Shown: piece after piece, positions 50,941-64,000 of the stretch | Layout: the number at the start of each line of letters is the position of its first letter | How positions within the stretch are numbered: position 1 is the first letter of the stretch | Assembly (NCBI GenBank): GCA_038204855.1 | Contig: JBBRCM010000003.1 | Coordinates: 620 to 64,619, forward strand | Direction of reading: 5' to 3' | Origin: Chitinophagales bacterium | GTDB taxonomy: Bacteria; Bacteroidota; Bacteroidia; Chitinophagales; Chitinophagaceae | Length of the DNA stretch: 64,000 nt | Notes under the pieces: generated by a model | Database searches by the model: none | What the model was told of the DNA's origin: nothing | The model's input: the letters and a program-made list of their open reading frames with translations, nothing else | Made by a program: the position numbers and the translations under genes

Positions 50941-51318
50941 CTAAACTGACAATATCAGTTCAGGTATTTTGTCAAAATCTTTTGATTTATCGATAAAGTA
51001 AAAAGCCCCTTCTGTTTTACATAATTTTTGGTAATAATCACTCACCAGGTTGCTTAAAACAATCACTTTAGTTTCAGGAAAATGAAACACGATGTGCTTT
51101 AATAAGTCAATTCCGCTTTTATCCGGCATCTGAATATCTAATAAAACAATACTTGTTTTTTCGCTGTATAAAACTTCAAGAGCTGTGTCATAATTGGTTG
51201 CTGTAAATATTTTTTCAATATTTTTAACCTCCTCAAGCATGCTTACAAGGCGTTCAATAATAAATACAGAACTGTCAATTATCAATAAAATTTTTGAAGA
51301 TTTATCGGCTTGAGGCAT
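50941..51318 (-). CDS. single-domain response regulator
   Basis: LLDIQMPDKSGIDLL, FIDKS. Confidence 0.87.
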   Translation of the reverse strand: MPQADKSSKILLIIDSSVFIIERLVSMLEEVKNIEKIFTATNYDTALEVLYSEKTSIVLLDIQMPDKSGIDLLKHIVFHFPETKVIVLSNLVSDYYQKLCKTEGAFYFIDKSKDFDKIPELILSV

Positions 51319-51382
51319 AAAATTATTACACCTTAAAATTATACTATTACCTGCCGAAGAATGTAGTAATATTTACGGTACG

Positions 51383-51402
51383 TTGTAGATTTTCTACTAC
51401 AA
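51383..51402. promoter_or_regulatory. dyad TTGTAG-N8-CTACAA, putative NarL-type regulator site
   Basis: Perfect 6-bp arms; related box TATAG-N8-CTACA at 56789-56806. Confidence 0.45.
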
Positions 51403-51427
51403 GAGGGAGGTGTCATAGTAATTTACC

Positions 51428-52057
51428 TCAAAGCAAATTATTTTCTATAGCATATCTTGTAAGGTCTGAATTGGATTTTAAATCCATCTTCGCCATAATT
51501 CTTGCCCGGTAAGTACTTACCGTTGTTACACTTAAAGAGAGCATATCGGCAATTTCCGAGACCGATTTGCCATTTGCCAGAAATTTCATCACGTCAAACT
51601 CCCTGTCACTAAGGTTTTCGTGCAGTTGCATAGAAGCATCCGAAGAGAAAGTGTTGGCCAGTTTTTCTGCAATGCCTTGGGATATATATTTTTTTCCCAA
51701 CAACACTTTCTGTACTGCTTTCACCAATTCATCAGGTGCAGTATCCTTACTTAAGTAGCCTGCCGCTCCGGACTTAAGTGCCCGTAATGCATATTGCTCC
51801 TCCGGATGAATACTTAATATAAGTACGGGCAAATGCGGGTGGGTTAACTTTATTTGCTGTAGCGCCTCCAACCCGCTGCGACCCGGCATTGACAGATCGC
51901 TTACTACCACATCCCACTTGGCAGTCATTACTCTCTTTACCAATTCGCCACCGTCTGCCACTTCTTCAATTTCGGCTCCCGGAAATTCATCCAGTAAAAT
52001 CTGTCTCAGCCCTTTTCTTACAACAGTATGGTCATCGGCAATTAATATTCTTAACAT
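51428..52057 (-). CDS. NarL/LuxR family response regulator
   Basis: IADDH, DLSMPGRSG, LSDREF..., TVSTYRARI. Confidence 0.93.
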   Translation of the reverse strand: MLRILIADDHTVVRKGLRQILLDEFPGAEIEEVADGGELVKRVMTAKWDVVVSDLSMPGRSGLEALQQIKLTHPHLPVLILSIHPEEQYALRALKSGAAGYLSKDTAPDELVKAVQKVLLGKKYISQGIAEKLANTFSSDASMQLHENLSDREFDVMKFLANGKSVSEIADMLSLSVTTVSTYRARIMAKMDLKSNSDLTRYAIENNLL

Positions 52058-52082
52058 AAAATAAATTTTATACAGTTGGCTA

Positions 52083-55000
52083 TTATTGCACAAGCGGTAT
52101 TGAAATAATTGTTTCTGATCCTTTACCTGGTCTGCTTTTAAATTCATACGTGCCTCCTAAAATCAGCGTTCGCTCTTTTATGCCCAATAATCCAAGCGTC
52201 TTTTTTTGTGTGATGGTTTCCGGATCAAAACCGGTTCCATTATCTGTTAAACTAAAAAACACACTATTATCCATTTTTTGCAAAAGTACTTTTACTAAAG
52301 AGGCTTTTGCATGCCGTGCCACGTTGGTTAACAATTCCTGGTAAATTCTGAATATTGCTGTAATTGAATCAGGCTTTAATATAACGTCATCCGCCTCATT
52401 AGTGAATTCAACACGAATACCCGATCTTTTTTCAAATTCTTCCCCCTGCCATTCCAACGCAGCTATCAGACCAAGATCATCCAGGATACTTGGTCTCAAA
52501 TCAGTCGCAATCTTTCTTACAGTGGCTACTGTTGCATTTATCAATTCTATGCTTTCCTTAAGTTTGGCTGCAATTTCATTATCGGAGGTATTTATTTTCC
52601 TTGTTAGCCAATAAATATCCATTTTAAGACCCGTTAATTGCTGACCGAGTTCATCATGTATTTCACGTGCTATACTTGTTCTTTCTTCTTCCCGTATGTT
52701 TTGCAGGTTAGAAGCAAGTTGCCTTATATCCTGATACGATTTTTGTAACCGCTCTTCTGCCATGTATTTATCAGTCACATCGTACGATAAGCTAAGCCAT
52801 ACCCACTTTCCTTCGTACATAATCTGATGGCTGTTTGTTTCCACCTGTATAACTGTGCCATTCTTTTTTTTGTGTCGCCAGGCTCTGGTGTTAATTTCAT
52901 CCTGTTTCATCTTTTTTACTTCTTTCAAAAAATTTGCTACATCTTCAGCCGGCCTTAAATCTCTTGTGTTCATACATAAAAACTCTTCCCTGCTATATCC
53001 GTACTGCTTTATTGCCGATTCATTTACATCAATAATATCCAGGTCCGGAATTGTAGTCATCCACATTGGCAAAGGATTATTATAAAACAGCAACCGGTAT
53101 TTTTGTTCAGATTGAATAAGTGCTTCCTCGGCCTGCTTACTATTGCTTACATCCTGTATGGTACCAACCATAGTCGTCGGCTGGCCGCTTTCGTTAAATT
53201 TAAGTGTTCCTATTCCATGAACCCATCTTTCCGCTTTATCATTTTTCCTTTCTATTTTGTATTCTTTATCAAACTTTATTTTTTTTCCTAACACTTCGTC
53301 TCTAAAATATGCACTCATTATTTCTCTCCAGTCCGGATGAATAATACCTACCCAACTTTCCACATTTTTTTCAAAGCTATCCTCAATTCCAAAAATATCA
53401 TTCAGGATTTCTGAGCTTGTCCATCTGTCGGAATAAATATCCAACGTATAGGTTCCTAGTTTGGCAATGAGCTGGGTTTCTTTTAAAAACCGCTCACTGT
53501 CACCCAATACTTCTTCTGCCATTTTACGCTCAGAGATATCCCTTGCAGCTACGGAGACACCATTTACTGTTTTTGATTCATCATAGACCGGGGTAAACCG
53601 TACCATCACCCAGGAAGGAAGGCCGGGGTTAATGAGTTTTATTTCATACTCTATACTTTCGCCTGCAAATGCTTTTTCGAAACTCTCTTTTATGGGTTCT
53701 TCGCCATGCTCAGGTATTATATCAAGAAGATTTGTACCCTGCTTTACCGGTTTTCCCCAGGCTATTTCAAGGTTTCTTTCTGCAACTTTATTAATTAAGA
53801 TAACTGTATAATTTACATCAACAACATAAAAATTATCTACTGAGCTCGATAAAACCTGCTGTAGCTTTTTCTCCTTTTCAATTAATTTCTCCGCCGTTTT
53901 TTTACGTTCGGCAATATTTCTTACAAACAATTGATAGCGGCCATCTAACAGTTTTTGAGCACTTATCTCAACATCAATTAGGGTTCCGTCTTTACAAATT
54001 AATCTCCGTTCATTGGTAATCGATTGCCCTTTTGCCATCATTGTAATTCTAAGTGGGTTACAGGCAAGGTCTTCGGGGGGAATCACGTCTTCAAATTTTA
54101 ATTTTTGCAGTTCTGTCTTGGTATATCCGCTCATCTGGCAACCCGCAGTGTTTACATCAATTAAGCAGGTGTTTTCATCAGCAATAAAAATACCATCAGC
54201 AGCCTGTTCTATTATAGTACGATATTTTTCTTCGCTTACAATTATTGCTTTCTGTGCTTCTTCCCTTTCACTAATATCCTGCATGGCGCCTAATATTCTT
54301 ACGGGGTTTCCTAAATCATCATACTTAATATAGGCCCTGTCATAAAATGTGTTGTATTCACCCTTTGCATTTTTAAACCGAAAAATTTCCGATAGCGAAA
54401 CCTCTTTGTTCTTAATAGCATCTTTCATCCTGTCTTCAATACCTGCCTGTTGTTCGGGAAGAATGTGCCCCAGGAACATTTCAAAATTTATTTTTTCTTT
54501 TCTATAATCAAGCCCGTAAATACTGTAGAGGTTTTTATTGCCCCATGTTTCGTTTTTAATAATATCATGATCCCATATAGCATCATTGGTTGCCTGTGCT
54601 ATCAGCTCAAAACGCTCATTTGATATTCTGATTTCTGCTTCCGCTTTAATTCTGTCTGTAATATTCTTGCTGGTTATAATGAACCCACTGCTCATCCCTT
54701 TATTATCCTTAAGCAGGTTAATATTACTGAGCAGGTTAATTTTTTCTTTGGTTTTAGGATGTATAAAATTAAACTCACCTTTCCATTTTCCTTCGGTAAA
54801 AACCTGCTTAAACACTTCCTCGCTATTTGTATTCGGGTATTCAAATGTTACCAGTTCCGGTACTCTTTTTCCAACAACCTCTGCTGTAGTAAATCCATAT
54901 AATTCCTCACAGGCTCTGTTCCAGCTTACTATACAACGATTCATATTCAGCGATGTAACCGCATCTGAAACGCTCTCCAGCAAACTTGCCTGGTACACGA

Positions 55001-56639
55001 GTTTGTTTTCATTTTTTTTTCTTTCGGTAATATCTCTTATAAACCCAATTAAAGTGTGAGAGCTTGCCATTTTGGAATTTAATTCCACATCCAGATATGT
55101 TCCGTCTTTTTTCTTCAGCCTTCTTTCGTATAAAAGGCTTTTGCCCTGCATTAGCTCCTGTATTCTTAATGGGTTTGATTTAATATCTTCTTCCGGTAAA
55201 AAATCTGTCAGGTGATAACCGATCATTTCGTCATCGGGGTAATCGATCATTTGCTGTATACTTTTATTTACTTCCAGGATAATGCCTTCCATATCGGTTA
55301 TCACAATGCCATCAGATGCCTGTTCAATAAGTGTTCGGTATTTTTCTTCTTTATTTTTTAAAGCCTGTGTTATCTGCTTTATATCAGTAACATCTTTAAA
55401 AAAAACAGTTAATCCGTCTTTCGAAGGATAAATATGATTTTCGAGCCACTTATCTAATGCTGGATAGTACTCTTCGAGGTATTGATATTCCTGAATTTCC
55501 ATAGCCTGGTGGTATGCTTGGTAAAAAGGCTGATCTATCCCGGCAGGAAACTCTTGCCAGATATTTTTTCCAATAAGGCTTTGCGGTTCTTTTTCCAGCA
55601 GTTCTCCTGCCTTTTCATTTACATAAGTGTAAAGCCAATTACTATTAAGGGCCACAAACGCATCAGATACACGTTCAACAAGTGAGCGGTAATTATTTTC
55701 ACTGCTATTTAGTTCACTCGTCCGGCTTAATACCAATTCATTCAATTTCTTTGGTCTCATTGCAATACGGTAGGTAAATACGGCTGCCAGAAAGGAGAGG
55801 AGCAAACCCAGCATGGCAAGTGTAAAAAGATCTCTGTAATCAGCGCTGCCTGCAGCGCTGATTACAGAGATCTTCCATTCGCCATCCGGCACAAAAATTG
55901 AAATTGATTTAGCCGAGGATAATTCTTTATGTTCAGGTAAAAAAAATTGTTCTTTTTTAGTATCGGGGTTAAGTTTTGAAAGTTGAAAATAATAACCATT
56001 GTTACCCAAACTGTCAATGCCGGCAGTTTTGAACAATGTTGACATTTTTATAATTACAGCCGAAAACCCCCAGAATTTATTGTGCCTGTAAACAGGCAAC
56101 CGGCCCACAATACCCATTCCTCCCTGTGTTAACTCAAAGGGGCCTGCAAAAAATAATTTCTTCTTTTCAATAGCTTTAAAGGCTTCTTTGCTTCTTGAAG
56201 AGTCCAGTAAAATATTATACCCAATTGCCTTTTCATTTCCCTTTAAAGGATAAGTATATTTTATAACTCCGTCTGGTACCAGTTGAAGGGCATCAATACC
56301 TTTTCCAGACTCAAGCACTTGTGCTGCTATAGAATCAAAATTATTTATCTCCCCGTTTTTATCTATTAAAAAAGCAAGGATTTTGGTGGCAGAAAGGCTT
56401 TGAGTTAAAACTTCCTGCAACTTATCTTTTGCCTGGTGAACAATTTCAATAGCTTCTTTTTCCCTGTTTTCTTTAGTCAGTTGATAGCGGTCAAAAATGA
56501 GTACAGTAAATAATAATGAAATAATGATAAACACCAGGCAACTCAAAAATACCGGTCGGTTAAATATAGAAAACGCCACAGTGCTTTTATGGTGCTGCCC
56601 GGTCATTTGGTTATTTCTTATGTTTTCCTGATCTGACAT
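52083..56639 (-). CDS. CHASE + multi-PAS NarX-type (HisKA_3) sensor kinase
   Basis: 2 TM around a CHASE-like region (AGPFELTQGG); multiple PAS; IAREIHDELGQ; ELLTNVARHA. Confidence 0.9.
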   Translation of the reverse strand: MSDQENIRNNQMTGQHHKSTVAFSIFNRPVFLSCLVFIIISLLFTVLIFDRYQLTKENREKEAIEIVHQAKDKLQEVLTQSLSATKILAFLIDKNGEINNFDSIAAQVLESGKGIDALQLVPDGVIKYTYPLKGNEKAIGYNILLDSSRSKEAFKAIEKKKLFFAGPFELTQGGMGIVGRLPVYRHNKFWGFSAVIIKMSTLFKTAGIDSLGNNGYYFQLSKLNPDTKKEQFFLPEHKELSSAKSISIFVPDGEWKISVISAAGSADYRDLFTLAMLGLLLSFLAAVFTYRIAMRPKKLNELVLSRTSELNSSENNYRSLVERVSDAFVALNSNWLYTYVNEKAGELLEKEPQSLIGKNIWQEFPAGIDQPFYQAYHQAMEIQEYQYLEEYYPALDKWLENHIYPSKDGLTVFFKDVTDIKQITQALKNKEEKYRTLIEQASDGIVITDMEGIILEVNKSIQQMIDYPDDEMIGYHLTDFLPEEDIKSNPLRIQELMQGKSLLYERRLKKKDGTYLDVELNSKMASSHTLIGFIRDITERKKNENKLVYQASLLESVSDAVTSLNMNRCIVSWNRACEELYGFTTAEVVGKRVPELVTFEYPNTNSEEVFKQVFTEGKWKGEFNFIHPKTKEKINLLSNINLLKDNKGMSSGFIITSKNITDRIKAEAEIRISNERFELIAQATNDAIWDHDIIKNETWGNKNLYSIYGLDYRKEKINFEMFLGHILPEQQAGIEDRMKDAIKNKEVSLSEIFRFKNAKGEYNTFYDRAYIKYDDLGNPVRILGAMQDISEREEAQKAIIVSEEKYRTIIEQAADGIFIADENTCLIDVNTAGCQMSGYTKTELQKLKFEDVIPPEDLACNPLRITMMAKGQSITNERRLICKDGTLIDVEISAQKLLDGRYQLFVRNIAERKKTAEKLIEKEKKLQQVLSSSVDNFYVVDVNYTVILINKVAERNLEIAWGKPVKQGTNLLDIIPEHGEEPIKESFEKAFAGESIEYEIKLINPGLPSWVMVRFTPVYDESKTVNGVSVAARDISERKMAEEVLGDSERFLKETQLIAKLGTYTLDIYSDRWTSSEILNDIFGIEDSFEKNVESWVGIIHPDWREIMSAYFRDEVLGKKIKFDKEYKIERKNDKAERWVHGIGTLKFNESGQPTTMVGTIQDVSNSKQAEEALIQSEQKYRLLFYNNPLPMWMTTIPDLDIIDVNESAIKQYGYSREEFLCMNTRDLRPAEDVANFLKEVKKMKQDEINTRAWRHKKKNGTVIQVETNSHQIMYEGKWVWLSLSYDVTDKYMAEERLQKSYQDIRQLASNLQNIREEERTSIAREIHDELGQQLTGLKMDIYWLTRKINTSDNEIAAKLKESIELINATVATVRKIATDLRPSILDDLGLIAALEWQGEEFEKRSGIRVEFTNEADDVILKPDSITAIFRIYQELLTNVARHAKASLVKVLLQKMDNSVFFSLTDNGTGFDPETITQKKTLGLLGIKERTLILGGTYEFKSRPGKGSETIISIPLVQ

Positions 56640-56855
56640 GCGGCTTTTAGACTGTAAGTAGTAAATGGTTAAATGAAAGAAGCCGGAACAATTTAAGTTA
56701 CGACTTTTATACCGATAAATAAGTTTGTTATCACTTGTAAAAGCCGGTATAGACATTTACAAATTTATCTGACTATTGAAATATAAACTATAGACATCCT
56801 TCTACACCAGCGGGTAAGAGCGGTATTTATCGCAGTGCTGCTGTATTTAAAGCAG

Positions 56856-57491
56856 CTATTGATCTAAAGCTGGCAGTAATTTTATTTCGTTTCGGTATAA
56901 AATAATTTTTTTATTGTTTTCAAGCTGCTTCAGCAGCCTTGATATTACAACTCTTGAAGTTGCCAGTTCATCTGCTATAAGATGGTGGGATACTTTTATG
57001 GCACTGGACCCGGTTATGCGTTGTTTTTCTTTTAAATAGTCTACCAGTCTTTCATCCAGTTTATGAAAGGCTATACTCTCAATTGATTTTAATAATTCGA
57101 TAAAGCGTTCATTAAAACTTCGCATGATATAATTTTTCCAGCCGGGATAGTTACAAAGCCATTCGTCCAATTTCAAGTGGGGTATGGCAATCAGCTCAAC
57201 ATCATCCTCGGCTATCGCTTTCACCTCGCTTTTTTTAGCTTCGATGCAGCAACTGTATGCCATGGAGCAGCTTTCGTTACTGGATAAATAATACAATAAA
57301 ATTTCATTGCCGTCTTCATCCATTCTCAACACCTTAACTGTTCCATTTAAAATAATGGGCATCATACGAATGTATTTTCCGTAATCCATTATCAGGTCAG
57401 CTTCTTTAAAATGCTGAATGATGCCGAACTGCTGAATTTCTTTCAACAAAGCTGGTTCAAAAATATGGGACAGGCTATCTAAACTCATCAT
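56856..57491 (-). CDS. Crp/Fnr family transcriptional regulator
   Basis: EILLYYL..ESC, LDERL, IADELATSRVVISRLLK. Confidence 0.92.
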   Translation of the reverse strand: MMSLDSLSHIFEPALLKEIQQFGIIQHFKEADLIMDYGKYIRMMPIILNGTVKVLRMDEDGNEILLYYLSSNESCSMAYSCCIEAKKSEVKAIAEDDVELIAIPHLKLDEWLCNYPGWKNYIMRSFNERFIELLKSIESIAFHKLDERLVDYLKEKQRITGSSAIKVSHHLIADELATSRVVISRLLKQLENNKKIILYRNEIKLLPALDQ

Positions 57492-57496
57492 GTAAT

Positions 57497-59191
57497 TTAA
57501 CGAAACTTATAATCTACCCCCGTAATCTGGGTAAGTAATGTTTGTGGGGCATCCAGTATATACGCACTTCCTGGCGGCGTTGGTGTAACTGGTGAAGCGG
57601 CTGCCAGGTAATCTCTCATAACAGCATGCAAAGTGTACTGCGTATTGGCTGCGTTTGCAACATGCTTCATCCGGCAAAGCATATCACTTGGGTCGCCATC
57701 CCGTTCGCAGGCACATATCCTGTACACTTTATCCGGTTCAAGTGCTGTATTTGCAATGGTTACTGTCTGCACCCTTTTACCTTTTTCTGCAAAAGCATTA
57801 AAGGCAACTTTCATTCCTTTAAACTTTATAATCCAGCCACCAAGCCGTTCCGATGCATCTTTGGCAAAAACATTGTGCAATTCTTTTTCGAGCCACTCTT
57901 TAATTTGTTTACCCGCTACCATTCCTGTTCTTACTGTACTATCCACCGGAAACATATCATAAATATATCCGTTGGTGATGGGGATGTTGCCGGTATGATC
58001 GGGCGTTGTACGTGGCGGACAAAAACGAAAACCATTTGATAAGACAATATCCATTTCAGGAACTTTCCATTTCAGCGCATCCAGTATCATGGTATCAATC
58101 GTATTTTCTACCACAAAATATCTGTACAACGGAATAGTGCTATATCCTGCTATGGTATGCATATCCTTTATAAAAGCTGTTTCATTTTCTTTAATTAAAG
58201 CAGTTATTGCTGTTGAGGGTTTAAATTTGTCTGCTGTTATTTCCACCAGTTCATATTCGTCTTTAATTACTTTTCCATTTTGTACGGTAAGATTTAGTTT
58301 GCCCACAAAAGACCCAAAAGCGCCTGGCTCCACCACCTTACTGAATTTACATTGAATTGGCTTTCTTACTCTTTCATGTGTATCGCCGCCAAGAATATAA
58401 TCAACACCCTTGCACTCCGGTAAATTTGCCAGGTAAATCTGTTGCGATAATCCCAGGTGAGCTACTATTAATACATAAGCACATTGCTCCTGGTTTCTTA
58501 ATACATCAACATAATGTTCCAGATTTTCTTCAGGCTTGGTATAAATAATTCCTTTGCTGTAATTGGGTGATTGCCGGATGGGTACCAAAGGATCGGTGTA
58601 ACCGATAAAACCTATTTTAACCCCTTTCACATTCCAGATATAATATGGAGGAAAAATCAGTTCTCCTTTTTTTCCATCACCTAAATCGTGATACATATTT
58701 GCACAAACCTTGGGTGCATTTAAAGATCCCAATAAAGTTTGCATGGCTTTTTTGTGATAAATAACTTCCCAGTTGCCGGGTAAATACAAATCGTAACCCA
58801 ATGCATTTAAAATGGGCACCATGGCTTTACCGGTTGTTTTTACAGATAGCTCACTACCCTGGAACATATCGCCGGTATCAATTAAAAAACTATCTGGATT
58901 TTTCTTTCTTTCATTTTGAAGATATGTAGCTACATGTGCATAGCCACCGGTTTTACGAAATACAGCTTTATCATTTTCCCAAAACAATTCATCATGTGGA
59001 TGAACCTGGCAATGCACATCGGTTGTTTGTAAAATTGAAATAGTAAAGGGTTTGTCATCAGCCGCAGTTTTATAATCCGGCTTTGAATTTTCTTTTGAGG
59101 CTGCAACTGCCATGATTGGCGAAGATGCCAATAAACCTGCACCACCAAGCGTACTTATTTTTTTTATAAAATCTCTTCTGTTATTGTTCAT
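57497..59191 (-). CDS. Tat-exported SoxB-like thiosulfohydrolase / 5'-nucleotidase family protein
   Basis: RRDFIK Tat signal; TDVHCQ, GGYAH, DTGDMFQGS, GNWE, GGDTHE, NGFRF. Confidence 0.75.
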   Translation of the reverse strand: MNNNRRDFIKKISTLGGAGLLASSPIMAVAASKENSKPDYKTAADDKPFTISILQTTDVHCQVHPHDELFWENDKAVFRKTGGYAHVATYLQNERKKNPDSFLIDTGDMFQGSELSVKTTGKAMVPILNALGYDLYLPGNWEVIYHKKAMQTLLGSLNAPKVCANMYHDLGDGKKGELIFPPYYIWNVKGVKIGFIGYTDPLVPIRQSPNYSKGIIYTKPEENLEHYVDVLRNQEQCAYVLIVAHLGLSQQIYLANLPECKGVDYILGGDTHERVRKPIQCKFSKVVEPGAFGSFVGKLNLTVQNGKVIKDEYELVEITADKFKPSTAITALIKENETAFIKDMHTIAGYSTIPLYRYFVVENTIDTMILDALKWKVPEMDIVLSNGFRFCPPRTTPDHTGNIPITNGYIYDMFPVDSTVRTGMVAGKQIKEWLEKELHNVFAKDASERLGGWIIKFKGMKVAFNAFAEKGKRVQTVTIANTALEPDKVYRICACERDGDPSDMLCRMKHVANAANTQYTLHAVMRDYLAAASPVTPTPPGSAYILDAPQTLLTQITGVDYKFR

Positions 59192-59200
59192 GGGTGGATA

Positions 59201-60274
59201 TTAATTTTTAGCAACCGTAGTTTTTTGTTTCGCCGTTTCTTCTCTTTTCTTTTGTTCTTCCACAATGGGTTTAAAGGGTCCGTACTTGTGTTGCTTTTCA
59301 GCAAATGAATCTATGTAAGGTCCAAAAGGATGATCAACCGGTTTCTTTGTTATATCGGGCCAGTCTTTGGGTGTATTGATATGTGGCCTTTGTTGTGAGA
59401 TGACAAATGCAGCAATATCCCAAGCTTCTTCATCGGTCAGTTGCGGGCTTTGATAGTTTGTGCCCTGGGGCATATTGTACTTTACATATTTTGCAAAGTT
59501 GCTGATGCGGTACAAGCCGGCGCCATCATTAAAACTGTTTTTGCCCCATAAGGCAGGATATGTGTATTCCGTTTTATCTGATGTAAAAACTCCCTCCCCA
59601 TTTGCCTGGTGACAGCTTTGGCATTTTGTGGTATAAACGGTCATACCTTTTTCGGGGTCAGAGGCACGGTCGAGCCAGGCAAGGTCTTTAAATCCTGAGC
59701 CTGCCGCTTTTTTACCTTTTGCCACATTCGATCCTACAAAATTGATGTAGGTTGCAATGGCCTGCATTTCTTTTCCCAATGTATCAATTACCTTTCCGTT
59801 CAAGCTTCTTTCAAAACAATCATTTACTCTTTTATAAATATTTTCAATACTTCCACTTCTTGCCCTGAATTTTGGATAGAGTGATGCAACCGAACCATAA
59901 TTATTTCCGAAAATCATTGTGCCTGCCTGCAGATGACAATTCTGGCAATTCATGCCATTGGCTATTTTTAATACCGTTCCGTTGGGGCCCAGGTATTTGG
60001 CCGTGTGTGCAATTAATTCTTTACCATACTCAACCGCTGCTTTTTGTTTTGCATCTGTAATAGTATTGATATCGGGTGCCGCCCAATATTTTGTTGTATC
60101 AGTTTTTATAATCTCGGTTGAAGTTGCACTATTTTGTTTTTCGGATTGATTTTGATAAGATAATATAAATGGCATGGCAACAATGCCGATCACCAATACT
60201 ACTATTACAAACAGTAATTTATTTATAATGGAAATCAGTCCCTCTGATTTTTTGTCTTCCTGTTCGTTGTGCAT
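59201..60274 (-). CDS. tsdA: TsdA-like diheme cytochrome c (thiosulfate dehydrogenase)
   Basis: CQNCH and CQSCH; YPKFRAR; RVNDCFERSLNG (active-site Cys); SFNDGAG; NMP; N-terminal TM. Confidence 0.78.
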   Translation of the reverse strand: MHNEQEDKKSEGLISIINKLLFVIVVLVIGIVAMPFILSYQNQSEKQNSATSTEIIKTDTTKYWAAPDINTITDAKQKAAVEYGKELIAHTAKYLGPNGTVLKIANGMNCQNCHLQAGTMIFGNNYGSVASLYPKFRARSGSIENIYKRVNDCFERSLNGKVIDTLGKEMQAIATYINFVGSNVAKGKKAAGSGFKDLAWLDRASDPEKGMTVYTTKCQSCHQANGEGVFTSDKTEYTYPALWGKNSFNDGAGLYRISNFAKYVKYNMPQGTNYQSPQLTDEEAWDIAAFVISQQRPHINTPKDWPDITKKPVDHPFGPYIDSFAEKQHKYGPFKPIVEEQKKREETAKQKTTVAKN

Positions 60275-60291
60275 AAGCAATCAATTTAAAA

Positions 60292-60789
60292 CTAGTGCGG
60301 AAGTTTCTCTCTAACAAAACCATATACCCAGGTGCCTGCAAGTGCACTCACTAAAGTTATCACTATTACATAAGCACCCGAACCTATTTGGGCATATAAA
60401 GGCCCCGGGCAGGCCCCGGTAATTGCCCAGCCAAGGCCAAATAGCAACCCTCCATAAATCTGTCCTTTATTAAAAGACCGTGGATGAAATGTTATGGTTT
60501 CACCATAAATGGTTTTTACATTTAATTTTTTAATTAGCCACACAGAAATAATACCCACTACAACCGCACTGCCAATTACGCCATACATATGAAAGGATTG
60601 CAGGCGGAACATTTCCTGTATCCGGAACCAGCTTATGATCTCTGCCTTTACAAAAACAATTCCGAAAGCCAGGCCTACAATCATGTACTTGATATTATGA
60701 TACCACTTATGTGTTAACCTGCTTTCGTTTACACACATGGCATCTAATGAACGTGCTTCAAAATCTGTATTTGTATCTGTGTTATGCAT
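60292..60789 (-). CDS. YeeE/YedE family sulfur transporter subunit
   Basis: SWFRIQEMF, GGLLFGLGWAITGACPGP. Confidence 0.88.
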   Translation of the reverse strand: MHNTDTNTDFEARSLDAMCVNESRLTHKWYHNIKYMIVGLAFGIVFVKAEIISWFRIQEMFRLQSFHMYGVIGSAVVVGIISVWLIKKLNVKTIYGETITFHPRSFNKGQIYGGLLFGLGWAITGACPGPLYAQIGSGAYVIVITLVSALAGTWVYGFVREKLPH

Positions 60790-60798
60790 ATTGTTTTT

Positions 60799-61368
60799 TT
60801 AAAGAGAAAGAATATATGGAAGAATGAGGTTTGACATGATAAAACCACCAGCCATAAAACAAGCTGTTGCCACCAGTGATGGCCATTGCAATGTTGATAA
60901 GCCCATGATGGAATGACCGCTGGTACAGCCGCCTGCATAGCGGGTTCCAAAGCCTACCATAAAGCCGCCAAGCACCATCATGATTAGCCCTTTAACAGTT
61001 AAAAGGCTTTGCCAGTTAAATAATTGATTGGGTACCATTCCGGAATAATCAGTTATGCCATATCCTGCCAGGTCGTCGGCCAGTTTGGGGCTGATTTGAA
61101 CAGGTGACGGGTTTGCCAAAAAATTGGCAGCAATAACGCCCCCAACAAAAATGCCCAGCACAAAAAAAAGATTCCATATTTCTTTTTTCCAGTCGTACTT
61201 AAAAAAAGGAATATTTGCAGGCAAACATGCCGCACAAATATGGCGCAGCGATGAACTGATACCAAAAGATTTATTGCCAATGATAAGTAAGGCAGGCACA
61301 GTTAATCCAATTAACGGCCCTGCAACATACCATGGCCAGGGTTGTTTAATAAACTCAACTATACTCAT
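60799..61368 (-). CDS. YeeE/YedE family sulfur transporter subunit
   Basis: PWPWYVAG, FGISS, GFGTRYAGGCTSGH. Confidence 0.9.
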   Translation of the reverse strand: MSIVEFIKQPWPWYVAGPLIGLTVPALLIIGNKSFGISSSLRHICAACLPANIPFFKYDWKKEIWNLFFVLGIFVGGVIAANFLANPSPVQISPKLADDLAGYGITDYSGMVPNQLFNWQSLLTVKGLIMMVLGGFMVGFGTRYAGGCTSGHSIMGLSTLQWPSLVATACFMAGGFIMSNLILPYILSL

Positions 61369-61438
61369 ACATTTTTTATTGGTTAAAAGAAAAGGTTGCC
61401 AACTTTTTCAAAGCCGGCAACCCTTTAAATTTACGAAT

Positions 61439-61750
61439 TTATTTTACAAACTGATTAACATTATTCCACGTACCTCCATTTATCACATTGGTAAAACCAT
61501 TTTGCTGTAAAATGCTTTTTGCCTGTCCGCTTCGGGCACCGCTGCGGCAAAATACTATAATATTTTTTTTGTTTTTGAATTTAACAAGTTGGTTTGAAAT
61601 ACTGTCTAAAGGAATATTTACAGATCCTTTTACATGGCCCGAACCAAACTCGCCGGCTGTTCTTACATCTACTAAAAAAGCGCCTTCATCAATAACTGTT
61701 TTTAAATCAACCGCAGGTGTGCTGCTGAATAACCTCTGCAATAAGTTCAT
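61439..61750 (-). CDS. rhodanese domain protein
   Basis: VDVRTAGEF..GH, CRSGARS. Confidence 0.9.
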   Translation of the reverse strand: MNLLQRLFSSTPAVDLKTVIDEGAFLVDVRTAGEFGSGHVKGSVNIPLDSISNQLVKFKNKKNIIVFCRSGARSGQAKSILQQNGFTNVINGGTWNNVNQFVK

Positions 61751-61761
61751 CTTTTGTTTTT

Positions 61762-62058
61762 TTAAGTTGTGAATTTTTTTATAACGCTTACTAATCCTGC
61801 CTTGGGCACAACCCCGCTTTGTCGCCAAAGTGGTTTCCCATTTTTAAAAAGTATTAGTGTAGGCACTCCCTGCACCTGGTATTCCTGTGCGGCCTTCGGG
61901 CTTTTGTCCACATCAACCTTAATAATGGTTACAGCATCGCCAACTTCCTTTTTTACATCTTTAAGTATGGGTGCCATCATTTTGCAGGGGCCACACCACT
62001 CTGCAAAAAAATCTACCAGTACCGGTTTCTCTGTATTTATAATTTCGCTAAACGTCAT
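61762..62058 (-). CDS. trxA: thioredoxin
   Basis: WCGPC and VPT motifs. Confidence 0.92.
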   Translation of the reverse strand: MTFSEIINTEKPVLVDFFAEWCGPCKMMAPILKDVKKEVGDAVTIIKVDVDKSPKAAQEYQVQGVPTLILFKNGKPLWRQSGVVPKAGLVSVIKKFTT

Positions 62059-62281
62059 GATTATTTTCTCCTTCTTTAATAACTTCTTTTTTTTCTTTTT
62101 TAAACAAGCCAAATAATAACGAACCCATAACAGCACCGTAAACAGTACTGTTAACCGGTTTAGATGTGATCATACAAGTACCTGATGAGCACCCTACCTG
62201 TTGCCAATAAATATAGCCTGCAATAGACCCAACAACAGCCCCAATCAGATACAAGGCATTATTTTTAAACCACTTCTTCAT
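62048..62281 (-). CDS. DUF6132-like small membrane protein
   Basis: GYIYWQQVGCSSGTCMITSKP. Confidence 0.75.
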   Translation of the reverse strand: MKKWFKNNALYLIGAVVGSIAGYIYWQQVGCSSGTCMITSKPVNSTVYGAVMGSLLFGLFKKEKKEVIKEGENNHDV

Positions 62282-62501
62282 AAATAATTTCTTTTGCTTT
62301 ATCCTGGTTTTTATCAGGTGGTACGTAACATCCCTGCGTACCACAACAGCCAATATTAAAAACAGGCATCGCAGTAAATATTAAGCCAAAAATGGCAAAT
62401 AAAATATCCATGGCAATAATTGCCTGAACCAGTATGGCAATCCCCACACCCAACCTCAGTAACCTTATAAATGTCCAGTTTGATAATATAGTTTGTTTCA
62501 T
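62265..62501 (-). CDS. small membrane protein with GCCG motif
   Basis: NWTFIRLLRL, 2 TM, NIGCCGTQGC. Confidence 0.72.
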   Translation of the reverse strand: MKQTILSNWTFIRLLRLGVGIAILVQAIIAMDILFAIFGLIFTAMPVFNIGCCGTQGCYVPPDKNQDKAKEIIYEEVV

Positions 62502-62549
62502 GATCTTCTTTTTCTAATGCAAATTTAAGTTAACCAGATTCCTCTTTGA

Positions 62550-62563
62550 GTAACAAAGGTTAC
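62550..62563. promoter_or_regulatory. Crp/Fnr-type box GTAAC-N4-GTTAC
   Basis: Perfect dyad; 22-nt gap from -7 element TAAATTTG (62520-62527, minus strand). Confidence 0.65.
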
Positions 62564-62587
62564 ATCCAAACCAAGCGCATATGGTTT

Positions 62588-63043
62588 TTAGGTAGAAAGT
62601 ACTGCCTCTGCTATTTTCACAACCGGCTTAAAAATAATGGTTGCTTTAACTGAATTTGAGATCAGGCAGGCAGCATCTGATTTTTCTAATATTCGGATAG
62701 CTTTTTCTTTATCAGCATCCGGGGCAATGGTTAATACAGGAGATAACACAACTTCGGTGATCATATATTTTCCTTCAACTTTTTCAAGCTTGCCATCGGC
62801 ATTGCTTTCAAAATGTATAAAATCAAATTTGAAATTTTCGGCAATGGCTAAAAAGGTTGTCATCAGGCAACTATTTACAGCAGCCACCAGCAAATGCTCC
62901 GGCGACCAGATGCCCGGCATGCCTTTGGCAAACTCAGGCGGCGTTGCCACTTCTATTGCTTCCTTTAAAACCGGCGAACTTATGATTCCTTTCCGGTCGG
63001 ATTGCCAGTTTACTTTTACTTCGTAACGATGAACGTTTTCCAT
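62588..63043 (-). CDS. OsmC family protein
   Basis: ATPPEF, WSPEHLLVAAVNSCL, CLISNS. Confidence 0.88.
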   Translation of the reverse strand: MENVHRYEVKVNWQSDRKGIISSPVLKEAIEVATPPEFAKGMPGIWSPEHLLVAAVNSCLMTTFLAIAENFKFDFIHFESNADGKLEKVEGKYMITEVVLSPVLTIAPDADKEKAIRILEKSDAACLISNSVKATIIFKPVVKIAEAVLST

Positions 63044-63088
63044 GATTTTTTTTGTTTAAAATATGGCAAAAAAAATTTCCGGCTATTA

Positions 63089-63298
63089 CTAATTCTTTTT
63101 TGCCGGGCAGGTGTTTAAGCCTATTAAAGTGTAAAGCGGACAAAAACTAATCAGGCTGGTTACCAGAAATATGCCGCCTAATACCAGCAACACAATACCA
63201 AATACTCCTGATACGGTATTGGTAAAGTAAAGCACTGCAAATAAAATAGCTAAAAATGTTCGGATTACGCGGTCTGTAGTTCCCATATTCTTTTTCAT
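63089..63298 (-). CDS. DUF2892 (YgaP-like) membrane protein
   Basis: NMGTTDRVIR, FCPLY. Confidence 0.88.
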   Translation of the reverse strand: MKKNMGTTDRVIRTFLAILFAVLYFTNTVSGVFGIVLLVLGGIFLVTSLISFCPLYTLIGLNTCPAKKN

Positions 63299-63386
63299 AT
63301 AAATAGTTTTTAGTTAAATGATATTATGGTAAATAATTTTTCGAATGAATACATAACAAAAGTAAAACCAACTGCTCCAGCGTATG

Positions 63387-63400
63387 GTGACTTATGTTAC
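63387..63400. promoter_or_regulatory. Crp/Fnr-type box GTGAC-N4-GTTAC
   Basis: Same 22-nt gap from -7 element TACTTTTG (63357-63364, minus strand). Confidence 0.62.
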
Positions 63401-63433
63401 TTTAAATGAGGCTTATTTATGATTGTTGTCATA

Positions 63434-63467
63434 AAACAAAAAGCAGCCCCGGGCTGCTTTTTGTTTA
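63434..63467 (-). terminator. intrinsic terminator
   Basis: AAACAAAAAGCAGCCC/GGGCTGCTTTTTGTTT. Confidence 0.75.
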
Positions 63468-63488
63468 TGGGGTTTTTCCAAATTAATA

Positions 63489-63998
63489 TTATACGGGCAT
63501 TGTTTTGCTCTGGCAAACAAAATCTGTTTTTGAAATATCTGTTTTATTGATAGCTGCAAAACCGCCTTCCACTTCGGTAAAATTCCGATATCCCCGTGCC
63601 TGCAAAATAGAAGCTGCTATCATACTGCGATAGCCGCCGGCACAATGAACATAAAAGTGTTCTTCGGGATTTATATCCTTTACCCATTCATTAATAAAAG
63701 CCAGCGGTCTGTTATATGCTTCATCAACGTGCGCTGCGGCATACTCTGTGTCTTTACGAATATCAATTACTTTATCTTCTCCAATTTTCAGTTCTTTTGA
63801 AAACTGATCTGCTGTAATCCTGTCCACCACATCAGCTTCTTTACCGGCTTGCAGCCAGGCAGTAAAGCTTCCCTGCAAATGACCGATTACATTATCAAAA
63901 CCAACACGGCTTAAACGGGTTACCGATTCTTCTTCTTTACCCAAATCGGCTACCAGTAAAATCGGTTGCTTTACATCAACAATCAATGCGCCAACCCA
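63489..63998 (-). CDS. C-terminal rhodanese part of a probable MBL-fold persulfide dioxygenase-rhodanese fusion (5'-truncated)
   Basis: Frame open to the window edge (WVGALIVD...); RLSRVGFD, HCAGGYRS; the MBL domain is inferred, not visible. Confidence 0.72.
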   Translation of the reverse strand, partial: WVGALIVDVKQPILLVADLGKEEESVTRLSRVGFDNVIGHLQGSFTAWLQAGKEADVVDRITADQFSKELKIGEDKVIDIRKDTEYAAAHVDEAYNRPLAFINEWVKDINPEEHFYVHCAGGYRSMIAASILQARGYRNFTEVEGGFAAINKTDISKTDFVCQSKTMPV

Positions 63999-64000
63999 GG

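Follow-up and report, generated by a model that had tools for sequence, protein, structure and literature searches.

Whether thiosulfate can be oxidized by a thiosulfate dehydrogenase (TsdA) and a SoxB-like hydrolase acting side by side, free of the SoxYZ carrier, is the question raised by a sulfur gene cluster from a Chitinophagales bacterium of the family Chitinophagaceae. The stretch analysed, called the window here, comprises 64,000 nucleotides of contig JBBRCM010000003.1 (positions 620 to 64,619 of the forward strand; GenBank assembly GCA_038204855.1), the source assembly consisting of 245 contigs and being 82% complete. The names carried by near-identical proteins and by related loci point to a position near Ferruginibacter within this family. 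An initial annotation, made from the sequence without database searches, had read window positions 56,856 to 63,998 as a self-contained, carrier-independent pathway resembling the TsdA, SoxB and sulfur dioxygenase route of the alphaproteobacterium Erythrobacter flavus, in a lineage new to such chemistry. This interpretation is partly supported: it was right in outline, with its novelty and self-sufficiency overstated. The cluster is real and widespread, being a further example of a kind known from E. flavus genetics, and the result from the window is mainly confirmatory.

Conservation of the TsdA and SoxB-like pair

The neighbourhood was surveyed with one genome per species and a five-sequence alignment as the query. 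At least 574 contigs contain a gene related to that of the SoxB-like protein, and the best 80 of these were examined; all 80 loci belong to Bacteroidota, from several orders, including the cultured Daejeonella rubra DSM 24536. The survey of cluster conservation, which had been suggested along with the initial annotation, bears it out, as in 68 of the 80 related loci, all from other Bacteroidota species, the gene immediately upstream of the SoxB-like one is tsdA; the arrangement is therefore not due to chance. This pairing is seen in Chitinophagaceae, Sphingobacteriaceae, Saprospiraceae, Haliscomenobacter, Cytophagales and Flavobacteriales, spanning at least five orders, and is also kept in most same-family loci whose hydrolase is only 45-50% identical to that of the window. 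The conservation of the neighbourhood, like the identities of its genes, is a matter of direct observation.

The remaining genes are less constant, the two YeeE halves being present in 55 and 54 of the 80 loci, the rhodanese in 50, the Crp gene in 44, the persulfide dioxygenase (PDO)-rhodanese fusion in 34, a homologue of the 78-residue Cys-motif protein (Cys78) in 33 and the TPMT gene in 13. In consensus, the genes run TauE-(TPMT)-PDO/Rhd ... Cys78-DUF6132-Trx-Rhd-(Rhd)-Usp-YeeE1-YeeE2-TsdA-SoxB-like-DsrE(exported)-OprD porin-Crp, where Rhd stands for rhodanese and Trx for thioredoxin; SQR, DsrC and DsrE2 also occur within the cluster in 8 to 11 of 81 relatives. Compared to this order, the window version is reduced, lacking the exported DsrE, the porin, Usp and SQR. 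The direct junction between the SoxB-like gene and crp, without DsrE or porin, is found in four related loci as well (L039, L045, L062 and L070).

The SoxB-like hydrolase

The hydrolase carries a twin-arginine (Tat) signal, RRDFIK, scoring 17.2 bits with TIGR01409 against a cut-off of 16.7. Its best NCBIfam profile is that of SoxB, TIGR04486, at 235.5 bits, which is below the equivalog cut-off of 550; representatives of its clade reach 255-322 bits with this model and a canonical SoxB control 649. By sequence it is nearest to SoxB (2wdc, E 8e-30), and in the alignment the SoxB insertion of approximately 40 residues after motif I is missing. Thus, of the Tat-exported SoxB-like enzyme that had been claimed, the export signal and the kinship to SoxB stand, whereas its score and the missing insertion set it apart from canonical SoxB.

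The ligand motifs of dimetal phosphoesterases are present (D58, H60, D108, N140, H245 and D270/H272). Motif III reads GNWE rather than HWE, its Asn being the nucleotidase state and its Trp the SoxB state, the latter replacing the catalytic His of nucleotidases; nearly all clade members have Trp at this position of GNHE. Motif V reads GGDTHE, and throughout the clade, including the window protein, GFRF occupies the position of the nucleotidase GGIR, whereas the nucleotidase-type sequences of the same alignment have GNHE or GNHD together with GGIR. In addition, a Cys pair, C494/C506 (window 57674-57712; CxR.G....D..CR), is conserved in the clade and in a neighbouring GNWD group, but not in canonical SoxB, and could form a disulfide or take part in chemistry.

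A quick maximum-likelihood tree, the SoxB phylogeny that had been proposed as a check, places the window protein within a 60-row clade (Shimodaira-Hasegawa-like approximate likelihood ratio test, SH-aLRT, 99) separate from the clade of canonical SoxB, the order of the deepest branches being unsettled. The window subclade mixes orders on short branches, and many genomes of the same family hold a second subclade at 45-50% identity. The AlphaFold (AF2) model, with a confidence score (pLDDT) of 91, has SoxB (4uwq/2wdc) as its top Foldseek matches. Compared with the canonical Sox system (SoxXA, SoxYZ, SoxB and SoxCD), the protein shares the two-domain dimetal fold (TM-score ~0.8), the motif III Trp, the C-domain arginines and Tat export; it differs from SoxB in its profile score (235 versus 550 bits), the lack of the insertion, Asn for His in motif III, Asp for the first His in motif V and the extra Cys pair. 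Taken together, these sequence features indicate a protein that is neither a canonical SoxB nor a plain nucleotidase.

TsdA and the CstB-like fusion

The cytochrome of the window is, as judged from well-supported sequence evidence, a genuine TsdA, in line with the initial annotation. It matches the structures of Allochromatium vinosum TsdA in the PDB with E ~1e-37 and has the domains PF21342 and PF00034. The haem motifs CQNCH and CQSCH, the Cys ligand of haem 1 in NDCFERS and the Met ligand of haem 2 in NMP are invariant among 82 orthologues. The Cys ligand, which is Cys96 in A. vinosum, lies in RVNDCFERSLNG, aligned to RIGDCFERSLNG of 4wq7, and the Met ligand in KYNMP, aligned to KHKMP/KHNMP. 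An Asn precedes this Met in the window TsdA, which explains why 4wqc, the K208N variant, ranks first among the PDB matches.

The dihaem core, the His/Cys coordination of haem 1 and the Met at haem 2 are thus shared with the enzymes of A. vinosum (4wq7) and Campylobacter jejuni. The window TsdA differs in that it has a membrane anchor in place of a cleaved signal, a C-terminal extension, Asn instead of Lys before the Met, and no adjacent tsdB. An N-terminal hydrophobic segment is present in 78 of the 82 orthologues, and the extension of about 45 residues, missing from the solved A. vinosum enzyme, is conserved in all 82. This extension covers approximately residues 305-345 (window 59201-59360) and follows the pattern DWPD..KKP.DHPFGPY.D.F.E.QHK.GPF, common to the Bacteroidota orthologues.

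The fusion protein encoded at the window edge aligns over its full length with 3tp9 (E 5e-65) and 3r2u (E 3e-57). It possesses a metallo-β-lactamase (MBL) motif, THFHADF, corresponding to HxHxDH, and two rhodanese domains, the last of which bears an active-site Cys (HCAGGYRS); its sequence thus has the architecture of a CstB-type persulfide dioxygenase-sulfurtransferase. The documented product of CstB is thiosulfate, not sulfite. Like the cst operon of Staphylococcus aureus (CstR, TauE, CstA, CstB and SQR), the cluster combines a PDO-rhodanese-rhodanese fusion with TauE and a dedicated regulator; unlike it, the regulator is of the Crp/Fnr type rather than the CsoR type, SQR is absent, and a periplasmic branch of TsdA and the SoxB-like hydrolase is added.

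Absence of SoxYZ and a candidate carrier

SoxY and SoxZ (PF13501 and PF08770) gave no match in the source genome, as assembled at 82% completeness. Because of this incompleteness, five hydrolase-bearing genomes of the same family, each with a completeness of 99% or more, were searched in the same way, and neither SoxY nor SoxZ was found. Only one domain of the SoxA/TsdA type occurs in the source genome, therefore leaving no SoxA. That the assembled DNA lacks SoxYZ and SoxA is thus a direct observation, and the claim of a cluster without SoxXA and SoxYZ, a difference from canonical Sox, holds.

The further claim that the pathway is independent of any carrier may or may not hold, because an exported DsrE-like protein with conserved cysteines is encoded beside the hydrolase in most relatives (51 of 81 related loci), being missing from the window and from the genome as assembled. 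An example of this family (L098, 11734-12177) has 147 residues, a signal peptide and two conserved cysteines (EVVCHG and FxACE), and a gene for an OprD-family porin often comes next after it in the relatives. This exported protein is a candidate for a periplasmic sulfur carrier that would replace SoxYZ. According to a passage of PMC4175335, DsrE3A forms a Cys-S-thiosulfonate with tetrathionate.

Comparison with Erythrobacter flavus

As described by Zhang et al. (ISME J 2020; PMC7608252), deletion of tsdA or of 'soxB' in E. flavus 21-3 abolished the formation of sulfur globules from thiosulfate. Its 'soxB' (D0Y83_01365), annotated as 'bifunctional metallophosphatase/5'-nucleotidase', was proposed to hydrolyse tetrathionate, and the cluster includes an MBL-rhodanese dioxygenase (SdoA/SdoB). 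The resemblance noticed in the initial annotation extends to the gene-content design, as the window also clusters an enlarged TsdA, a stand-alone, non-canonical SoxB-related hydrolase of the sort named metallophosphatase/5'-nucleotidase by NCBI, and an MBL-rhodanese dioxygenase, with SoxYZ absent. However, E. flavus is an alphaproteobacterium with three SoxB-like paralogues, and the hydrolases are compared here by annotation and gene content. Beyond the E. flavus set, the Bacteroidota cluster has the split YeeE pair, thioredoxin, rhodanese, the small Cys membrane proteins and a Crp-type regulator, to which most of the Bacteroidota relatives add the exported DsrE-like protein and the OprD porin.

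Table S5 of the same study (PMC7608252) already lists Hymenobacter and Maribacter with TsdA and SoxB but without SoxYZ, and within Bacteroidota the cluster is both frequent and mobile; the lineage is accordingly not new to such chemistry, as had been supposed. The literature search found no paper pairing 'tsdA' with 'Chitinophagaceae', and no purified-enzyme work on the E. flavus-type SoxB or on the window clade. Alphaproteobacterial stand-ins for E. flavus were also considered, namely a Novosphingobium cluster without TsdA and a Chelatococcus TsdA without sulfur neighbours, and neither serves.

The Crp regulator and its probable box

The Crp/Fnr-family protein has both of its domains above the cut-offs (PF00027, 30.2 bits; PF13545, 29.3 bits). 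Three of its cysteines, Cys75, Cys81 and Cys82 (ESCSMAYSCC), lie in the nucleotide-binding roll, in the region where CRP binds cyclic AMP (cAMP), and a further one is Cys113. Conservation among the 46 cluster-linked orthologues is 46 for Cys75, 45 for Cys81, 43 for Cys82 and 39 for Cys113.

When palindromes of the form 5-Nx-5 were counted without bias upstream of the cluster genes, GTAAC-N4-GTTAC was the sole clear winner, with 36 perfect matches in these upstream regions (33 kb) compared to 25 in the remaining 1.31 Mb, an enrichment of ~57-fold; as related loci are not independent, these statistics are support rather than proof. The locus contains three sites, one exact and two with one mismatch, all intergenic and ahead of transcription units, where 0.26 would be expected in 11.9 kb. 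The exact box ends 22 nt upstream of the -7 element TAAATTTG (62520-62527), and the one-mismatch box ahead of the YgaP-OsmC unit ends 22 nt upstream of the -7 element TACTTTTG (63357-63364). Both promoters therefore have a -7 element of the form TAnnTTTG at exactly 22 nt from the box, a spacing that is observed directly and that puts the centre of the box near -41, the class II position. Other one-mismatch matches, inside tauE and elsewhere in the window, were taken as chance.

Exact sites are present in 32 of the 44 loci with a crp gene versus 11 of the 39 without, most of these 11 being cut contigs, and the box occurs in none of the fully covered loci with another regulator or none seen (Runella, Hymenobacter with ArsR and Haliscomenobacter). 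By its sequence and position, the exact box is a probable Crp site of a nine-gene operon ending with tsdA, the SoxB-like gene and crp, and the Cys-bearing regulator probably activates the operons of the cluster. The arrangement recalls class II activation by CRP, FNR or NtcA, the box being a 14-bp palindrome with the 5-N4-5 geometry of the FNR box, centred ~41 nt upstream of the implied start. In contrast to CRP and FNR, the half-site is GTAAC, the cAMP-contacting residues are replaced by Cys-X5-Cys-Cys, and the N-terminal Cys cluster of the FNR type is lacking. No report tying a Crp/Fnr protein to persulfide sensing was found in the literature search.

Proposed route and competing explanations

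The explanation that we consider rather probable is an accessory, mobile, two-compartment cluster of Bacteroidota for the oxidation of reactive sulfur and thiosulfate, free of SoxYZ. In the periplasm, anchored TsdA would interconvert thiosulfate and tetrathionate, its electrons going to the respiratory chain, and the SoxB-like hydrolase would cleave the terminal sulfonate as sulfate from tetrathionate or other S-sulfonated species, leaving sulfane sulfur, without SoxYZ. The split YeeE/YedE channel would then move thiosulfate or sulfane sulfur across the membrane. In the cytoplasm, rhodanese and thioredoxin would mobilise the sulfane sulfur, and the CstB-like fusion would oxidise persulfide to sulfite or thiosulfate. 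TauE may export the resulting oxyanion, with TPMT, OsmC and the small Cys-motif membrane proteins as presumed accessories, and the Crp/Fnr protein would switch these units on together via the GTAAC-N4-GTTAC boxes at class II-like positions. The substrates, the TsdA direction and the signal sensed by the regulator are parts of this scheme that we infer, and the order of reactions in the initial annotation, from thiosulfate to tetrathionate, sulfane sulfur and sulfite, rests on analogy only and was overstated.

Several findings weigh against this explanation. TsdA enzymes are bidirectional, and the window TsdA has Asn-Met at haem 2, like the Campylobacter enzyme; Campylobacter TsdA favours tetrathionate reduction. 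Genes of the FCSD_central/SQR type, the DsrE family and the SUOX-type sulfite oxidase molybdoenzymes were not found in the source genome (82% complete; SQR also by tblastn), so that the route is not visibly complete and the pathway cannot be called self-contained, as it had been. In E. flavus, SoxB was assigned from genetics and stoichiometry rather than from purified protein. Regarding regulation, the PDO gene is preceded by a box that deviates at one position and has no clear -7 element at 22 nt. Moreover, the Foldseek TM-scores of the hydrolase are 0.78-0.81 for SoxB and 0.73-0.84 for 5'-nucleotidases, the latter scoring almost as well, so the fold alone decides nothing and the motifs and the tree were used instead. 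These near-equal scores, the public annotations as 5'-nucleotidase and the retained Asn of GNHE are what speaks for a periplasmic 5'-nucleotidase or phosphoesterase of the usual kind, whose place beside sulfur genes would be incidental. A plain nucleotidase is nevertheless dismissed as very improbable because Trp stands for the catalytic His in nearly all clade members; in addition, GFRF replaces GGIR, the best profile match is SoxB, and the TsdA neighbour is kept across at least five orders.

A cluster devoted mainly to sulfide and persulfide stress, in the manner of cst, is unlikely, and overlaps with the favoured oxidation cluster rather than excluding it. Here the CstB-like enzyme would produce thiosulfate, exported by TauE or the YeeE pair, and TsdA and the hydrolase would only dispose of it in the periplasm, external thiosulfate not being a substrate and no energy being gained. 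The CstB architecture, the typical thiol-stress partners TauE, rhodanese, thioredoxin and OsmC, the SQR, DsrC and DsrE2 genes in the clusters of some relatives and the likeness of the regulator to a thiol-based sensor agree with it, but no SQR-type gene was found in the source genome, and the TsdA/hydrolase pair is the most constant part of the cluster, more so than PDO (68 versus 34 of 80 loci). Uptake and assimilation of tetrathionate or thiosulfate, or tetrathionate respiration, is a decidedly weaker candidate, in which TsdA would reduce tetrathionate, YeeE import thiosulfate, rhodanese and thioredoxin yield sulfite and sulfide for cysteine, and the SoxB-like protein desulfonate S-sulfonates. 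YeeE (TsuA) is a thiosulfate importer according to a passage of PMC11073785, the rhodanese and thioredoxin genes are adjacent, and the haem 2 Asn-Met, with the K208N variant 4wqc as best PDB match, would suit the reductive direction; persulfide dioxygenase and a sulfite exporter fit poorly, however, cys genes are not adjacent in the window, and the E. flavus genetics indicate oxidation. Handling of selenium or tellurium oxyanions, which a YedE-type channel, rhodanese, thioredoxin and a TPMT-type methyltransferase would take up, reduce and methylate, is hardly credible: the TPMT family gene points that way, as do selenium-linked NCBIfam models that weakly match the YeeE halves and the rhodanese, but TPMT is found in few of the related loci, TsdA, PDO-rhodanese and TauE are sulfur enzymes, and no selenoprotein machinery was seen near the cluster.

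Within the SoxYZ-free oxidation cluster, a more specific joint reading, less likely than not, is put forward tentatively. The SoxB-like clade would hydrolyse polythionates or S-sulfonates in the periplasm at neutral pH, having no kinship with the tetrathionate hydrolases known from acidophiles, and the Cys-X5-Cys-Cys Crp would be a new class of reactive-sulfur sensor activating the cluster from class II sites. The substrate of the hydrolase would then be free tetrathionate, necessarily so in the DsrE-less variant of the window, or a Cys-S-thiosulfonate on the exported DsrE-like protein; the latter, if true, would make DsrE a replacement of SoxYZ.

If the SoxYZ-free route of TsdA and a SoxB-like hydrolase is real, it would let common Bacteroidota heterotrophs of freshwater, soil and activated sludge turn over thiosulfate and tetrathionate. 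Marker-gene surveys would miss it, as 'soxB' and 'tsdA' are scored separately, or a non-canonical soxB is discarded as a nucleotidase. Since carriers are available in culture (Daejeonella rubra DSM 24536, Runella slithyformis DSM 19594, Pontibacter akesuensis, Hymenobacter and Spirosoma linguale), both the reaction catalysed by the hydrolase and the signal sensed by the Crp protein are directly testable.

Spread and mobility

The hydrolase gene was found in none of 4 same-genus genomes, 23 of 200 same-family genomes and 17 of 400 genomes sampled across the phylum, corresponding to carriage by ~12% of the sampled family and ~4% of the sampled phylum species. Variants of the cluster are plasmid-borne in Runella slithyformis, R. 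rosea, Pontibacter akesuensis and Hymenobacter sp. NBH84, some of them beside relaxase or conjugation genes; for a Spirosoma linguale plasmid, where the comparison covered TsdA only, a TsdA homologue was found. The plasmid copies, the patchy occurrence and the mixing of orders in the tree therefore identify the cluster as accessory and horizontally mobile.

Plasmid Paks1 of P. akesuensis (L114) holds three SoxB-like/5'-nucleotidase-like genes, TsdA, DsrE, TlpA and DoxX beside conjugative transfer genes, and its three SoxB-like genes recall the three paralogues of E. flavus. Plasmid pSA3 of Novosphingobium resinovorum (L111) has a sulfide-detoxification cluster composed of ArsR, MBL, the YeeE pair, a DUF442-SQR fusion, TauE, TlpA and DsbA, together with a 480-residue 5'-nucleotidase-like gene that is 28% identical to the window hydrolase, without TsdA. 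SoxB-related hydrolases thus recur in more than one type of sulfur cluster.

Organization of the cluster

The features of the locus are collected in Table 1. The listed genes are all present and all on the minus strand, as stated in the initial annotation, with intergenic gaps of 5 to 190 bp, and Pfam and NCBIfam support each assignment. The program-made open reading frames of the rhodanese, thioredoxin and DUF6132 genes begin too early, and the sizes given are those of the likely products. The cluster was also correctly expected to run past the window edge, continuing for 3.3 kb on the same contig with the rest of the CstB-like fusion, the TPMT methyltransferase and TauE.

Table 1. Features of the sulfur cluster, in window positions unless the contig is named (aa, amino acids).
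Feature	Position	Strand	Evidence or remark
Crp/Fnr-family regulator, 211 aa	56856..57491	-	cNMP_binding and HTH_Crp_2 domains
SoxB-like dimetal hydrolase, Tat-exported, non-canonical, 564 aa	57497..59191	-	Metallophos and 5_nucleotid_C domains
TsdA, dihaem, membrane-anchored thiosulfate dehydrogenase, 359 aa	59201..60280	-	PDB 4wqc/4wq7, E 1e-37
YeeE/YedE-type half transporter, DUF6691/Sulf_transp, 165 aa	60292..60789	-	Pfam
YeeE/YedE-type half transporter, Sulf_transp, 189 aa	60799..61368	-	Pfam
Rhodanese, single-domain, PspE/GlpE-like, ~103 aa	61439..61750	-	PF00581, E 1.5e-15; PspE model, 54 bits
Thioredoxin, WCGPC, 98 aa	61762..62058	-	TIGR01068, 118.5 bits (cut-off 96.8)
DUF6132 two-helix membrane protein, GCSSGTC loop, ~77 aa	62048..62281	-	PF19628, E 1.5e-7; also in related loci
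Two-helix membrane protein, GCCGTQGC tail, 78 aa	62265..62501	-	No Pfam or NCBIfam match
Exact GTAAC-N4-GTTAC box	62550..62563	-	49 bp upstream of the 78-aa gene start
OsmC-family protein, 151 aa	62588..63043	-	PF02566, E 1.2e-14
YgaP-like transmembrane domain protein (DUF2892), 69 aa	63089..63298	-	PF11127, E 8.5e-23
One-mismatch box GTAACATAAGTCAC	63387..63400	-	Ahead of the YgaP-OsmC unit
Terminator-like hairpin and T run, 3' of the PDO-rhodanese gene	63433..63461	-	Sequence inspection
CstB-like MBL persulfide dioxygenase-rhodanese-rhodanese fusion, C-terminal part	63489..64000 (window end)	-	Pfam; 3tp9 and 3r2u matches
Whole CstB-like fusion gene, 471 aa	contig 64108-65523		Followed by the one-mismatch box
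One-mismatch box	contig 65578-65591		Upstream of the PDO gene
TPMT-family methyltransferase	contig 65614-66243		Beyond the window
TauE	contig 66254-67051		Beyond the window

Regarding the YeeE pair (60292-61368), close relatives (L030-L062) hold one of two types, either 80-94% or 45-55% identical to that of the window, the remaining related loci being intermediate, and the type near-identical to the window pair occurs in clusters without the Usp gene. The two types, together with the absence of Usp, suggest module swapping inside the cluster.

At the contig end, a tyrosine recombinase fragment (Phage_int_SAM_5; contig 67361-67934) diverges from tauE. It has a counterpart in none of the related loci, and is therefore placed outside the conserved cluster; it may mark an insertion point or simply an assembly break. 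On the other side, just downstream of crp (50941-56756), the window encodes a 1557-residue CHASE/PAS histidine kinase, a LuxR-type response regulator and a single-domain receiver. This block is syntenic with the cluster in close relatives (e.g., L030, L031 and L070), and is followed by an AMP-dependent ligase on the opposite strand.

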